A DNA stretch of 64,000 bases, taken from the NCBI GenBank assembly GCA_016285575.1, contig JAEEQX010000003.1, positions 781 through 64,780 on the forward strand, read 5' to 3'. The translations under genes were made by a program, and so were the position numbers. The stretch comes from Lachnospiraceae bacterium. Lineage in GTDB: Bacteria > Bacillota > Clostridia > Lachnospirales > Lachnospiraceae. Below, piece by piece: positions 9,993 to 60,919 of this stretch (positions within the stretch are counted from its first letter, which is position 1; every line of letters begins with the position of its first letter). The notes beneath the pieces are model-generated. The model had not been told where the DNA came from. It saw only the letters and a list, made by a program, of their open reading frames with translations, and made no database searches.

Positions 9993-10355
9993 TTATTTAT
10001 ATTTCTTTTTAATAGCCTTGAATGTCTCATCAGAGATAACATGTTCTATTCTGCAGGCATCTTCGGACGCGGTCTTCTCACTCACCCCAAAGTCTATAAG
10101 CATCTTGGTAAGATAAGTATGCTTTTCATATGTCTTCTTAGCTATCTTGCCACCTGCTTCGGTGAAATCAATATATCCGTTAGCATCAACTGTAACATAG
10201 CCTTCCTTCTTAAGGTTAGCTAAAGCAATACTTACGCTGGGCTTGGAGTAATTCATCTCCTTAACAATATCTATAGCTCTAACGTGCTCTAATCCTCGTT
10301 TCTTTAATACAAGTATTGTTTCGAGATACATCTCGCCTGATTCATATATAGCCAT
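9993..10355 (-). CDS. DtxR/MntR-family metal-dependent regulator, copy 1
   Basis: EMYLETI, SKPSVS recognition helix, KH, EDACRIEH; start at ATG 10355 after SD AGGGGG. Confidence 0.92.
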   Translation of the reverse strand: MAIYESGEMYLETILVLKKRGLEHVRAIDIVKEMNYSKPSVSIALANLKKEGYVTVDANGYIDFTEAGGKIAKKTYEKHTYLTKMLIDFGVSEKTASEDACRIEHVISDETFKAIKKKYK

Positions 10356-10459
10356 ATTTATCCCCCTGTGGTCACATATTTTCAATTCACTTTATATATT
10401 ATAAGACCGCTTCGTTAGAAAAACAATACAGAAGTTAGACTAATCGAACTGGCGGAGAA

Positions 10460-12704: not shown

Positions 12705-13301
12705 TTAGACAATGCCTGCCTTTTCGAAGTGCTTTTTAACAACTGCTTTTCCAAGGAATGCACCAACACATCCAAAAACAAAACAGAGAATGAGAAGAAC
12801 TCCAATTGTCTTAAAATTGATTGCTCTGAAAAGGTTGTCGCAATATTCCTGAGAATATCCGCTTTCCAAGAGTCCCTCTCTATATGACTTGGCCGTAATT
12901 ACTACAGGGAAATAATTTGCACATATCCAGAGACTGAATACGCCATTGCTTAATACTGTTTTCTTAAAGCTCTTATATTTTCCTGACATTGCAATCAAGT
13001 CTGCTAATACACCCGCTCCAATAATCAAAGGAGCACCAAGATATCCCATACCGGTTACAAACATGATTATTGCCATAAGAACTGACATTATTGTAATCAT
13101 TCCGAACTTCTCTACCTTGGTATAAAAGAGCATCATTGGAATACATCCTACAAGAGGAATCATAATTACATATGATGCAACAATATAAGGATGGAAAAAT
13201 CCAAGCATACCGCAGGCAAACTCAACTACAAAAAGAATTGCTGTAAAAATACCAACTGTAATAAAATCCTTTACTTTAAGTTTCTTATCGTTCATTTTCA
13301 A
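12705..13301 (-). CDS. MptD / Trep_Strep-type ECF S component
   Basis: KLKVKDFITVGIFTAI start, KVEKFGMITI, six hydrophobic segments; first gene of an S-T-A operon. Confidence 0.85.
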   Translation of the reverse strand: MKMNDKKLKVKDFITVGIFTAILFVVEFACGMLGFFHPYIVASYVIMIPLVGCIPMMLFYTKVEKFGMITIMSVLMAIIMFVTGMGYLGAPLIIGAGVLADLIAMSGKYKSFKKTVLSNGVFSLWICANYFPVVITAKSYREGLLESGYSQEYCDNLFRAINFKTIGVLLILCFVFGCVGAFLGKAVVKKHFEKAGIV

Positions 13302-13335
13302 CTCCTGATATTTAGTTTATTTTAGTTTAAACTTA

Positions 13336-13433
13336 GTTAGATGCATCTAACCGTGTTTACGATTAAATGGCAGTTAAGGTTAGTCTTCCTTAACTGCCAT
13401 ATCTTTTATATCATATAGTATTTATTTTATCAA
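13336..13433 (-). promoter_or_regulatory. ECF-1 promoter with DtxR-type boxes and a 5' hairpin
   Basis: TTGATA (13433-28), 17 nt, TGn-TATAAA (13410-05); hairpin 13367-13400; GTTAG-ATGCAT-CTAAC 13336-51; GTTAG-TCTTCC-TTAAC 13379-94. Confidence 0.8.
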
Positions 13434-13459
13434 CTAAAAATGTACCAAAAATATAACAT

Positions 13460-16966: not shown

Positions 16967-16986
16967 GAGTTAGTTTAGTCTAACTC
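16967..16986. promoter_or_regulatory. DtxR-type box upstream of ABC pair 1
   Basis: GAGTTAG-TTTAGT-CTAACTC, directly upstream of the SD. Confidence 0.8.
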
Positions 16987-20861: not shown

Positions 20862-21485
20862 CTACTTCTTAGCAATCACTGTAATCCATGGTTTAGACTC
20901 ATGATGAAAAGACTTAACTTCCTTGAATCCTGCCGAAATGATCGCTGATTCAATATCCTCTATTGTGTAGCATTTCATTCCTTCGATGATGCTCTCGTAT
21001 TTAAGACTTGCTTCATCCTTACCATCGGATTCATTAACTATCATGAAAGTTCCTTCATCCTTTAACACTCTGAAAACTTCAGAAAAGCATCTATGAAGAC
21101 CGGGCCAGAAATAGATAGTCTCAAAAGCAGTTGCTAACTCAAACTTGCCGTCAGGAAGATTAAGATTGGATACATCACCTTGTTTAACTTCGCATCTTCC
21201 GTTATCGATAGCTTCTTTGTTGTAATTAGTTGCCTTTTCTACAGATACATCAGAATAGTCAACCGCTGTCATATATGCGGAGGGATATTTCTTCATGAGT
21301 TCTCCGGCGTTTCTGCCACCGCCACAGCCGATTTCCAATAAATATGTAGGATATTCAACCTGAAGGTGCGACATACCCCAATCCGCCATTGCTGCATGGC
21401 CACCATTCATGCCATTAACCATCATCTTGCCGAGAACTCCTTCAGGCTTTCTCGTCTGACTTACAAAGTTTTTGTAGAGACCCAT
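20862..21485 (-). CDS. Class I SAM-dependent methyltransferase
   Basis: LEIGCGGG motif I, AFETIYFW, VLKDEG; start ATG 21485 after GGAGGA. Confidence 0.9.
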   Translation of the reverse strand: MGLYKNFVSQTRKPEGVLGKMMVNGMNGGHAAMADWGMSHLQVEYPTYLLEIGCGGGRNAGELMKKYPSAYMTAVDYSDVSVEKATNYNKEAIDNGRCEVKQGDVSNLNLPDGKFELATAFETIYFWPGLHRCFSEVFRVLKDEGTFMIVNESDGKDEASLKYESIIEGMKCYTIEDIESAIISAGFKEVKSFHHESKPWITVIAKK

Positions 21486-21536: not shown

Positions 21537-21636
21537 GTTAGATATACCTAACTGTATGTACGTTTAATTGGCGGTTAAAAAGTTAGTCCTCTTTAACCGC
21601 CAATCATTTTATAACACACTATTTATAATTGTTCAA
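21537..21636 (-). promoter_or_regulatory. feo-1 operon promoter cassette (boxes + 5' hairpin)
   Basis: TTGAAC, 17 nt, TGn-TATAAA (21636-21608); 13-bp-stem hairpin 21567-21604; GTTAG-ATATAC-CTAAC 21537-52; GTTAG-TCCTCT-TTAAC 21582-97. Confidence 0.82.
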
Positions 21637-25184: not shown

Positions 25185-25216
25185 GTTAGTTATCACTAAC
25201 TCAATAATGATAACTT
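25185..25216. promoter_or_regulatory. DtxR-type box plus adjacent candidate TetR-2 site
   Basis: GTTAG-TTATCA-CTAAC 25185-200; AATGATAACT 25205-14 is also present (reverse complement) in the tetR-2 promoter. Confidence 0.7.
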
Positions 25217-32113: not shown

Positions 32114-32220
32114 ATTAGCCTTAACTAACCAAATTATAATACAATTTATACAAAACGCAATAAAGTAATTGACAATAGGAAAAAGGATATGTAATATTTA
32201 TGTAGTTAGTTACGACTAAC
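32114..32220. promoter_or_regulatory. Divergent promoter region with two DtxR-type boxes
   Basis: Plus TTGACA 32169-74, 17 nt, TAATAT; GTTAG-TTACGA-CTAAC 32205-20; ATTAG-CCTTAA-CTAAC 32114-29; minus TTGCGT, 16 nt, TATAAT (32160-32133). Confidence 0.75.
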
Positions 32221-39746: not shown

Positions 39747-40388
39747 TCATAACTTTCTGGCAACCAAATGCAATCTTGCTTTTTTCGCACTCTCCAGCAG
39801 TTCTATTTTTAATCCTGCCTTATTGCAAAATTCTTTTATCTCATCAAGAGACTTAGCACCAACATCTCCGTGCCCTGCCATATTGGCAAGGGGCATTTCA
39901 ATATGATTCATTAGCCAAAGCATCGGTTTGGATGAAGTGTAATCCTGTAATATGAGCCTTCCATTAGGTCTTAATACCCTTTTTACACTATCAAAAAATT
40001 TCTGCGGATTAGGATAATGATGAAAACTGTTCGAACAAATAATTGCATCAAAAGAATTATCCTCAAAAGGAAGATTCTCACAATCTCCAACAACCCAATC
40101 AACTCCTTCTAAATTCTTAGATATACCAACTTCTATCATCTTGGGTGTAATATCCAATCCTGTATAGTGTTTTCCCGGATCCTTTTCATAGAGAAGCGAA
40201 ATCATCGGTCCTGTTCCGCATCCGCAATCAAGAAGATCTTGATAATCTTCTTTTTCAAGTTCTCCCGCTATATACGGATAATCTTCTTTACAAATTTCAT
40301 ATATACCCGCATGATTTGATTCATATATCTCAGCGGCTTTTGTAAATTCTTTAACTGTTAATTCTTTATATTCGTTTTCTGTACGCAT
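39747..40388 (-). CDS. Class I SAM-dependent methyltransferase
   Basis: LLDCGCGTG, GLDITPKMI, GDCENLPF, SFHHYP, VLRPNG. Confidence 0.92.
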   Translation of the reverse strand: MRTENEYKELTVKEFTKAAEIYESNHAGIYEICKEDYPYIAGELEKEDYQDLLDCGCGTGPMISLLYEKDPGKHYTGLDITPKMIEVGISKNLEGVDWVVGDCENLPFEDNSFDAIICSNSFHHYPNPQKFFDSVKRVLRPNGRLILQDYTSSKPMLWLMNHIEMPLANMAGHGDVGAKSLDEIKEFCNKAGLKIELLESAKKARLHLVARKL

Positions 40389-40404: not shown

Positions 40405-40503
40405 GTTAGAACTATCTAACCTTTAAAAAAATATAATTGGCGATTAAAGTTAGTCTACTATAACCGCCAATCATTTTATAACACACTATTTATAATTGTT
40501 CAA
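40405..40503 (-). promoter_or_regulatory. Promoter cassette duplicated with 21537-21636
   Basis: 43 bp (40461-503) identical to 21594-636; hairpin 40436-71; GTTAG-AACTAT-CTAAC 40405-20; GTTAG-TCTACT-ATAAC 40449-64. Confidence 0.85.
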
Positions 40504-43658: not shown

Positions 43659-43750
43659 GTTAGATATGTCTAACTCTCTGTAATAAAAAATACGCGCCCT
43701 TAGGCGCTTTTAGATGCATTAATTGTAAATCAATTATATGATTTTTTCAA
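43659..43750 (-). promoter_or_regulatory. P-ATPase operon promoter with DtxR-type box
   Basis: TTGAAA 43750-45, 17 nt, TACAAT; GCGCC-CTTA-GGCGC hairpin; GTTAG-ATATGT-CTAAC 43659-74. Confidence 0.78.
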
Positions 43751-45260: not shown

Positions 45261-45316
45261 GTTAGTTATCGCTAACCTTAAACATAATATCATTCATCGA
45301 GTTAGTTGTCAATAAC
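45261..45316 (-). promoter_or_regulatory. eno promoter with two DtxR-type boxes
   Basis: TTGACA 45312-07, 17 nt, TGn-TATTAT; GTTAG-TTATCG-CTAAC 45261-76; GTTAG-TTGTCA-ATAAC 45301-16. Confidence 0.78.
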
Positions 45317-50171: not shown

Positions 50172-50289
50172 GAGGCAGATTGAAGAATCAATCCGCCTCT
50201 CCTGAAATGTGTAAAAGAAAATGTGTTATTCTAGTTAGTTGTTTCTAACCTTCTGTATATTAGCACTCGAAGAGTTAGTTGTCAATAAC
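50172..50289 (-). promoter_or_regulatory. ABC pair 3 promoter, two DtxR-type boxes and a leader hairpin
   Basis: TTGACA 50285-80, 17 nt, TGn-TAATAT; GTTAG-TTGTTT-CTAAC 50234-49; GTTAG-TTGTCA-ATAAC 50274-89; hairpin GAGGCGGATTGA-TTCT-TCAATCTGCCTC 50199-72. Confidence 0.78.
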
Positions 50290-51480: not shown

Positions 51481-51573
51481 GTTAGTTATCGCTAACCTGT
51501 TTTCCTTGTAAAAACCGATATTTCTATCGGTTAGTTACAACTAACATTATACATGCTATCACTGTTCTGTCAA
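51481..51573 (-). promoter_or_regulatory. Flavodoxin promoter with two perfect DtxR-type boxes
   Basis: TTGACA 51573-68, 16 nt, TATAAT; GTTAG-TTATCG-CTAAC 51481-96; GTTAG-TTACAA-CTAAC 51530-45. Confidence 0.82.
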
Positions 51574-55529: not shown

Positions 55530-55596
55530 CACATAACAATGTTATGTATTTGTTATTTTTTAATCACATAACATTGTTATGTGATTGTTATTTTTT
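55530..55596. repeat. Tandem 32-bp repeat (35-bp period), each copy holding a TetR-type palindrome
   Basis: CACATAACAATGTTATGTATTTGTTATTTTTT and CACATAACATTGTTATGTGATTGTTATTTTTT (29/32 identical). Confidence 0.85.
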
Positions 55597-55635: not shown

Positions 55636-56301
55636 TTATTTTTTCTTCTTGGTTTTAGTTTTACTATCCTTGTTATCAACAGGAACCATAACCAATTTTA
55701 CCCAACCGATTACAAGATAATTCATAATGCTTTGAATTCTCTTCAAAGCGATCTCTTCATCTCTCTCATGCATAACAACTTGGGAGATTGAATCAACTGT
55801 CGTATGCGCCATCCAGTGGGTCATAAAAGGATCGTAAGTATAAAAGTTCGAATCCTTAACCATTAGAACCGTAGACTTTTCTATAAGATCTACGAATTCA
55901 TCTATTATCTGGTCGAACGCATCCTCTTTTGAACCTGACAACAATAAAACGAAACTATCATAGTTCTTGTATATGCATTTAACAATCATTTCCGCTATGT
56001 CAGAATGATCTAAATCACCAAAGTCAAGAGAATTCATATTGCCCATAAATTCTCTGTCCTCTTTGTAATGTTCCGTAATCATTCTTTTTAGTTCTTCAAG
56101 AGGCGGATTAATAATTGAGTCAAACAGGTCTTCTTTGTTATTGAAGAAAAAGTAAAGCGCTCCCGTAGTCACACCTGCTTTTGCGCATATATTCCGAAGT
56201 GAAGCTTTATTGTATCCTTTTTCAAGAAACTCCTGCTTTGCTGCTTCAATTAACAGTCTTCTTTTTTCATAATCGTTTTCGTTTTTATTCACGTCAAACA
56301 C
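55636..56301 (-). CDS. TetR/AcrR-family regulator 4
   Basis: ASLRNICAKAGVTTGALYFFFNNKEDLF; GTG start at 56301 or 56292. Confidence 0.9.
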   Translation of the reverse strand: MFDVNKNENDYEKRRLLIEAAKQEFLEKGYNKASLRNICAKAGVTTGALYFFFNNKEDLFDSIINPPLEELKRMITEHYKEDREFMGNMNSLDFGDLDHSDIAEMIVKCIYKNYDSFVLLLSGSKEDAFDQIIDEFVDLIEKSTVLMVKDSNFYTYDPFMTHWMAHTTVDSISQVVMHERDEEIALKRIQSIMNYLVIGWVKLVMVPVDNKDSKTKTKKKK

Positions 56302-57205: not shown

Positions 57206-57604
57206 TTACTTAACAAGTTTTAATGCATACGTGTTAAAAGCGTTGGAATTATATAGTCTTTCGAGGCAATTATAAGTTTCTTCGCCTATGATATGTTCTA
57301 TGTCTCCTGCTTCTTCCAATGCATTGTCTTTGCTGACTCCTATTTTAAGTAAGAATCCCGCAAGCATAAGATGCTTGTCATATACTTTTTGTGCAATCTC
57401 TCTGCCTGAATCCGTAAGTGTAATGAATCTGTCTTCGCCAAACACAATATAGTTCTTATCCTGTAATTTTTTTACCATCGCACAAACCGTAGGTTTTGTT
57501 ACTCCTAGTTTGTGAACTATATCCACGGATCTGACCGAACCTTTGGATTTTTGCAATATTAAAATGCATTCCAGATAATCTTGTGTTAAGTTGTTTTTTT
57601 GCAT
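57206..57604 (-). CDS. DtxR/MntR-family metal-dependent regulator, copy 2
   Basis: QDYLECI, TKPTV helix, DKH, EEAGDIEH. Confidence 0.88.
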   Translation of the reverse strand: MQKNNLTQDYLECILILQKSKGSVRSVDIVHKLGVTKPTVCAMVKKLQDKNYIVFGEDRFITLTDSGREIAQKVYDKHLMLAGFLLKIGVSKDNALEEAGDIEHIIGEETYNCLERLYNSNAFNTYALKLVK

Positions 57605-60796: not shown

Positions 60797-60919
60797 GTTA
60801 GTTTTAACTAACCCTTTAGCTTTTAATATAAGTTAGATTTCTCTAACCCTTATGCCAACAAAATAGGTTAGCAACATCTAACCATGTATTATAATAATTA
60901 GTTGTCGCTAACCTGTCAA
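60797..60919 (-). promoter_or_regulatory. feo-2 promoter with four DtxR-type boxes
   Basis: Boxes start at 60797, 60832, 60867 (perfect) and 60897 (ATTAG); TTGACA 60919-14, 17 nt, TATTAT. Confidence 0.85.

Follow-up and report, generated by a model that had tools for sequence, protein, structure and literature searches.

Stem-loops at the 5' end of a transcript are an established means of mRNA protection, exemplified by ompA, aprE, and delta-ermC (PMC7509114). A 64-kb stretch of DNA from an uncultured rumen Lachnospiraceae-like bacterium, referred to here as the window, carries three minus-strand sites, copies 1, 2, and 3, that invite comparison with these leaders. As in ompA of E. coli, aprE of B. 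subtilis, and delta-ermC, a stable hairpin is predicted at or near the 5' end, the downstream spacer is unstructured and the Shine-Dalgarno sequence accessible, and sequence is free to change while pairing is kept. The three sites differ from these leaders in that the hairpin encloses a repressor operator, in that a homologous module is common to several operons of one regulon, and in that an effect on half-life is presumed.

Where an operator palindrome of the lac O1 type coincides with +1, the mRNA acquires a 5' hairpin as a by-product. The cassettes described here likewise have an operator that overlaps the predicted transcript start and whose RNA copy sits in a hairpin. In contrast to lac O1, however, the two half-sites of the operator do not pair with each other: the right one, CTAAC, lies in the loop, and the partner of the left one is an additional arm, TTAACCGCCAAT, whose pairing also takes in 7–8 nt outside the operator. 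A further difference lies in wobble-type changes that point to selection of the pairing on the RNA-sense strand.

The operator itself, GTTAG-N6-CTAAC, resembles the operators of DtxR, IdeR, and MntR in being a palindromic box of the 5-N6-5 form that is enriched before metal-homeostasis genes, namely feoAB, flavodoxin, and transporter genes, and in having two regulators of this family encoded nearby, while it differs from the 19-bp DtxR/IdeR consensus. Its wider form, TTAGC-N4-GCTAA, resembles the E. coli MntR site, ATAGC-N4-GCTAT. The candidate box-binding repressors are a 130-aa DtxR/MntR-family protein (minus strand, 9993–10385), encoded by the last gene of the copy 1 unit, and a 132-aa member of the same family (minus strand, 57206–57604) encoded downstream of feoB. 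The initial annotation spoke of a DtxR-type box, and with two such regulators encoded in the window this is a reasonable name for a putative operator.

With up to one mismatch allowed, the box occurs at 23 sites in the window against approximately 1.22 expected, a count that none of 100 shuffled sequences matches, and nearly all of these sites are intergenic within minus-strand operons. Four boxes in a row precede feoA-feoA-feoB (60797–60912), and two lie at the perfect TTGACA-16-TATAAT promoter of a flavodoxin gene. Boxes are also found before TetR/ABC-exporter operons, before two MptD-type ECF transporters, and before P-type ATPase, enolase, DUF3793, methyltransferase, and hydrolase genes. 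Sites beyond those of the three cassettes include 51481–51545, 45261–45316, 50234–50289, 43659–43674, 32114–32220, 25185–25200, and 16969–16984. In many other rumen Clostridia mptD is preceded by this box, there with the wider consensus GTTAGC-N4-GCTAAC. This regulon, in which GTTAG-N6-CTAAC would control feoAB, flavodoxin, ECF/ABC transporters, and methyltransferases across many rumen Clostridia, may prove more useful than the hairpin itself.

At the flavodoxin promoter, an unrelated 8-bp hairpin (AACCGATA/TATCGGTT) followed by TTTTT occupies 51513–51532, starting in the right half of box 1 and lying between the two boxes. The same order of box 1, hairpin with T run, and box 2 recurs at unrelated metagenome loci (L094, L167, L190, and L194), and the flavodoxin-promoter hairpin may be a leader attenuator. 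Separately, dense tandem arrays of GTTAGTnnnGACTAAC boxes occur on four metagenome contigs (L097, L187, L196, and L209) and bear no relation to the hairpin cassette.

One regulatory cassette, present as three paralogous copies, best accounts for the three sites. It opens with a sigma-A-type promoter that has an extended -10 element; a stem-loop comes next, and a short single-stranded stretch separates this from a second operator, which is perfect. The copy 1 promoter is predicted at 13405–13433 on the minus strand, with TTGATA at 13433–13428, a 17-nt spacer, TGaTATAAA, and the -10 element at 13410–13405. Copy 2 (21608–21636, minus strand) has TTGAAC, a 17-nt spacer, and TGtTATAAA, with an overlapping scan match, and copy 3 (40475–40503, minus strand) shares with copy 2 an identical run of 47 nt that reaches from the -35 element to the left arm. 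Placing the start 7 nt past the -10 element, as read by eye from TTGATA or TTGAAC, 17 nt, and TGnTATAAA, puts +1 at the first G of GGCRG (13398, 21601, and 40468); an automated promoter scan settled instead on TAAAAT, an overlapping hexamer shifted 2 nt downstream. By promoter prediction, the hairpins begin at the predicted +1, in agreement with the initial annotation, which places their start within a few nt of it.

The minus-strand hairpin sequences quoted in the initial annotation are present exactly at 13367–13400, 21567–21604, and 40436–40471. Copy 1 has perfect 13-bp arms around an 8-nt loop (predicted +1 at approximately 13398). Copy 2 has a 13-bp Watson–Crick stem with a 6-nt loop (approximately 21601), which lengthens to 16–18 bp when G·U pairs are included, and the stem of copy 3 (approximately 40468) counts 11 bp, one of them G·U, and resumes with three more pairs past an internal U·U mismatch. 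The stem core is G+C-rich (GGCRGUUAA.../...UUAAYYGCC). Predicted RNA folding energies are -21.1, -26.4, and -20.1 kcal/mol for copies 1, 2, and 3, with z-scores of -8.2, -9.6, and -7.2, and none of 200 shuffled sequences is as stable. The window folds, together with those of the 18 versions described below, thus give a stable stem-loop on the transcribed strand, as in 5'-terminal stabilizing stem-loops. When the leaders are folded from the predicted +1, the hairpin sits flush at the 5' end, the spacer behind it stays unpaired, box 2 forms a small hairpin of its own, and the Shine-Dalgarno sequence is left free. Metatranscriptome contigs at copies 1 and 2 are few, of low depth, and confined to coding regions.

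Each hairpin holds a degenerate box of the form GTTAN-N6-CTAAC in its apical part, and a perfect box follows downstream. In copy 1, box 1 (GTTAAGGAAGACTAAC, 13379–13394, minus strand) extends from the stem (left half) into the loop (right half), and box 2 (GTTAGATGCATCTAAC, 13336–13351, minus strand) lies 43 bp further downstream. The corresponding boxes of copy 2 are GTTAAAGAGGACTAAC (21582–21597) and GTTAGGTATATCTAAC (21537–21552), 45 bp apart, and those of copy 3 are GTTATAGTAGACTAAC (40449–40464) and GTTAGATAGTTCTAAC (40405–40420), 44 bp apart, all on the minus strand. The element is thus built around a putative DtxR/MntR-type operator, in keeping with the two family regulators of the window. 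A second, overlapping operator formed from the right arm was considered and excluded, as no left half-site is found at the hairpin at N6 spacing from the right-arm TTAAC. An imperfect palindrome with 25-nt arms that are 72% complementary (13319–13368) is centered on box 2 of copy 1; neither copy 2 nor copy 3 shows a counterpart, and the palindrome may be due to chance.

Behind copy 1 the first gene is mptD, which encodes an ECF transporter S component (12705–13295, minus strand), followed by genes for a CbiQ-like T component, a double ATPase, and the DtxR/MntR regulator. A class I SAM methyltransferase gene (20862–21485, minus strand) is first behind copy 2, ahead of genes for an HMA-domain protein, FeoA, and FeoB. 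Copy 3 precedes a second class I SAM methyltransferase gene (39747–40388, minus strand) and then a DUF6796 gene; the two methyltransferases share just 27% identity. The cassettes are homologous over their full length in a mosaic pattern, copies 2 and 3 being identical across 47 nt (21590–21636 and 40457–40503), including the spacer between -35 and -10, and copies 1 and 2 having the post-stem spacer in common.

To follow the hairpin beyond the window, we gathered 18 distinct versions of the cassette from related rumen genomes and metagenomes, namely a sister MAG (L090), metagenome contigs, and methyltransferase orthologues obtained by protein-only retrieval (L212–L221 and L230–L240). The metagenome scan was anchored on the two boxes and left the stems unconstrained except for GTTA, and part of the 18 versions were found by a pattern that fixes GTTA and GACTAAC. 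In the resulting alignment (A2), 95.9% of the cells pair and 5 of the 15 pairs carry double changes, values that none of 500 shuffles attains, while sliding the 3' partner by 1–3 columns reduces pairing to 17–50%. The two base-pair swaps that had been claimed between copies 1 and 2 are real (A-U/G-C at alignment columns 12–37 and G-C/A-U at columns 18–31), as is the G·U wobble of copy 3 (columns 13–36). As the 18 sequences are closely related and partly found by pattern, this helix-supporting covariation, of the kind that marks structured cis-regulatory RNA, is indicative and not rigorous.

The one-sided changes speak to the molecule on which selection acts. Core columns 6–16 contain 181 Watson–Crick pairs, 14 G·U pairs, no A·C pairs, and 3 other mismatches, and every one-sided core transition falls at an A or C position, such that wobble pairing is kept on the transcribed strand alone. 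By a manual, not phylogeny-aware count (copy 3, L090, L235, L212/L230–232, L206, L115/L169b, and L240), limited to columns or sequences left free by the search pattern, approximately 7 of 7 independent one-sided transitions yield G·U on the transcribed strand (simple binomial p of approximately 0.01). Copy 2 of the sister MAG is one such case, its single A-to-G change in the right arm converting U-A to U·G. Loop N5, the post-stem spacer, and the distance between the arms (11–15 nt) vary while the stem is kept. Taken together, the free loop length and spacing and the occurrence of G·U without A·C argue for selection of the hairpin at the level of RNA, or at the least of the RNA-sense strand, and not for a rigid protein site or a cruciform. 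The proposed conserved element of the transcribed strand is thereby borne out in 18 versions, with compensatory changes at five pairs and one-sided core changes of the wobble type only.

The same observations weigh on the idea that the arms serve as DNA, either as half-sites for a second DNA-binding protein (such as the other DtxR/MntR paralogue or a nearby TetR protein) or as a cruciform that alters the geometry of box 1. The palindrome does overlap the promoter region from -5 to +35, the window encodes two DtxR/MntR and at least four TetR proteins, and a dimer site would likewise show symmetric double changes. A dimeric operator has a fixed half-site spacing, however, with which the variable GGCGGTTAA-to-TTAACCGCC arm distance of 11–15 nt is incompatible, and the one-sided changes that give G·T on one strand give A·C on the other. 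A cruciform would require a good hairpin on both strands and a short spacer. Instead, in 15 of the 18 versions the fold of the transcribed strand is the more stable, by up to 12 kcal/mol, the variants placing A·C mismatches on the opposite strand. With DNA parameters the hairpins are weak in general and weaker again on the opposite strand, where they fall to approximately -7 kcal/mol. The unpaired spacers here measure 6–12 nt, a length that makes cruciform extrusion costly. We therefore consider a DNA-level role very unlikely, and the cruciform suggested earlier is not sustained.

The pairing does not stop exactly at the predicted start. The palindrome runs on for 3–5 bp upstream of +1 (ATGATT/AATTAA). 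This extension includes one of the double changes (T-A to A-U, columns 8–41) and suggests that transcription starts 1–3 nt further upstream or that read-through RNA or DNA also matters. Complementarity upstream of the predicted +1 (columns 4–8) is among the features that a role in elongation or processing would accommodate, in which the hairpin would act as a pause or attenuation signal combined with a roadblock at box 2, or as an RNase III-type site that uncouples the operons from upstream read-through. All three window cassettes do lie behind a co-oriented gene with no terminator between, stems of 13–18 bp stand 12–17 nt upstream of an operator, and copy 3 has a U7 run 5 nt past its stem. 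Against attenuation, the stems of copies 1 and 2 lack a U tract and no minus-strand terminator is called. At none of the three sites does a U tract follow the stem directly, the tails being UUUAAUCG, UAAACGUA, and UAUAUUUUUUU, and the terminator reading, which had been offered in the form of attenuation, is rejected for this reason. The lone terminator-like call falls on the plus strand of copy 1, the strand whose hairpin degrades in variants, and its T tail is the complement of the -10 box. RNase III usually requires roughly two helical turns, and most of the stems are shorter than this. Moreover, five orthologous loci (L236–L240) keep the hairpin even though the upstream gene has its own intrinsic terminator ahead of the cassette, which indicates that the hairpin belongs to the transcript of its own promoter and not to the terminator of the upstream gene. 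A pausing or processing role is on balance unlikely, if the strongest of the competitors.

The distribution of the cassette among relatives is narrow. The sister MAG carries copies 1 and 2, and homologous cassettes stand before several different genes elsewhere (L115, L160/162, L165, L169 twice, L199, and L206). Orthologues of the copy 2 methyltransferase retain the hairpin down to 76% protein identity (L212–L221 and L230–L240); it is absent from the more distant orthologues at 72–75% identity (L222–L229), four of which (L226–L229) retain a single box. At the mptD promoters of 80 loci from other rumen species and of homologues at 88–90% identity, the hairpin is likewise absent. Most of these mptD loci have no promoter of their own, an ABC exporter gene abutting mptD with its stop codon 17–20 nt from the mptD start in the 88–90% homologues and in most of the 80 species. 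On sequence comparison, then, the whole 158-bp cassette of copy 1 (13302–13459) is a lineage-specific insertion, since in relatives the ABC gene abuts mptD with no promoter between. The conserved leader element of the initial annotation is upheld within a narrow clade and is not spread family-wide; Lachnospiraceae, the family named there, agrees with the MAG labels.

A covariance model (R1) built from 13 versions scores copies 1, 2, and 3 at 65.7, 73.6, and 65.1 bits and the opposite strand 40–50 bits lower, and in the window plus approximately 1.3 Mb of other fetched loci it recovers no copies beyond those known and no solitary hairpins. A search of the whole window against Rfam 15 yields no matches at the gathering score, leaving the hairpin as a candidate RNA motif new to Rfam. 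The other box-controlled promoters of the window, approximately nine in number, show no comparable hairpin, and thus the hairpin is not required for regulation through the box.

This pattern of occurrence bears on whether the palindrome has any function. It might be the baggage of a recently duplicated promoter cassette, preserved by short divergence and by copying between the arms of a quasi-palindrome, as its restriction to a narrow lineage, the 47 identical nucleotides of copies 2 and 3, the insertion of copy 1 relative to relatives, and the other regulon promoters that do without it would all allow. Yet these sequences combine a stem that has remained paired with a loop and a spacer free to diverge, and one-sided changes that invariably give a wobble on one and the same strand are not what templated correction would produce. 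The persistence of the hairpin in orthologues down to 76% identity likewise counts against such passive retention, which we regard as distinctly improbable, more so than pausing or processing.

Insertion and duplication also raise the possibility of mobility. REP sequences, palindromic units, and mobile promoters are similar in being short, imperfect intergenic palindromes repeated within a genome, and one copy here is inserted. A promoter-operator-leader unit that moves or is copied between loci, its copying making use of the hairpin, could wire genes into the regulon; the insertion of copy 1 between the ABC exporter gene and mptD, which adjoin in relatives, the same cassette before unrelated genes in relatives, and identical promoters before methyltransferase genes of 27% identity are in accord with this. 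REP/RAYT-type elements occur as many dispersed solitary copies, mostly 3' of genes, however, whereas the window holds three promoter-linked copies, each in a complete promoter-operator cassette, in constant orientation to its gene, and none solitary there or in the approximately 1.3 Mb of other loci; the window also shows no gene for a transposase or a RAYT-like protein. In addition, two loci (L230 and L231) have both methyltransferase genes in one operon behind a single cassette, such that ordinary rearrangement accounts for copy 3. The chance that the cassette is mobile in this sense is slight. An attC-like integron site was also considered and set aside: attC sites have the arm order AAC...GTT, whereas the element here, 38 nt long, reads GTT...AAC, and no integrase gene accompanies it.

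The most likely function of the hairpin, as we infer it, is that of a 5'-terminal protective stem-loop, and we give an about even chance to the fuller reading in which the cassette is a two-operator, metal-repressed promoter whose RNA hairpin protects the 5' end of the mRNA. Here the transcription start, the identity of the repressor, the metal sensed, and the stabilizing effect of the hairpin are all putative. Under this model both GTTAG-N6-CTAAC operators would be bound as DNA by a metal-dependent repressor of the DtxR/MntR family, box 1 (approximately +4 to +19) blocking initiation and box 2 (approximately +48 to +63) contributing cooperativity or a roadblock. After derepression, the very 5' end of the transcript would fold into a 10–16 bp stem with practically no 5' overhang, which would keep the 5' triphosphate out of reach of pyrophosphohydrolase and of RNases, like RNase J and RNase Y, whose action depends on the 5' end. 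The outcome would be a longer-lived mRNA and a higher output of the operons. Four considerations weigh against this model: complementarity reaches upstream of the predicted +1 and includes a double change there, the versions compared are closely related, other box-controlled promoters in the window do without the hairpin, and stable transcripts would sit uneasily with the fast shut-off that the regulon should undergo when metal returns.

Beyond an end cap, the hairpin might present its loop half-site as RNA, the GACUAAC being bound by a DtxR/MntR-type repressor or another metal-dependent factor for post-transcriptional metal control, or the promoter-operator-hairpin unit might be a portable module that brings new operons, such as that of the mptD ECF transporter, into the metal regulon; we rate such roles as highly improbable. 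The loop GACUAAC, which is the operator's right half-site, is invariant in 18 of 18 versions, part of them found by the pattern that fixes it, and this invariance is equally well explained by the DNA operator and thus favors neither of these two readings.

Protection of the 5' end would be a fairly ordinary function for the hairpin, an element of a known kind. Should the hairpin stabilize mRNAs, a module of approximately 130 bp would join repression by two operators with a built-in determinant of mRNA lifetime, copied before several operons of a metal-starvation regulon in rumen Lachnospiraceae. The cassette also supplies a small RNA motif with natural compensatory variants, and motif and cassette together constitute a possible portable expression element for anaerobic Firmicutes.

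Two minor observations concern other features of the window. The MptD S component (12705–13295; loci L001–L080) is 73–84% identical across MAGs labelled Lachnospiraceae, Ruminococcus, Oscillospiraceae, and Saccharofermentans, plus one labelled Spirochaetaceae, which suggests horizontal spread of the MptD transporter in the rumen. Finally, the window contains just one other fully complementary inverted repeat of at least 12 nt with a short spacer, a perfect 12-nt palindrome (AATCACATAACA/TGTTATGTGATT) at 55562–55586 that lies between a TetR gene (55636–56301) and an operon encoding an ABC ATPase and an FtsX permease, and is probably a TetR operator.
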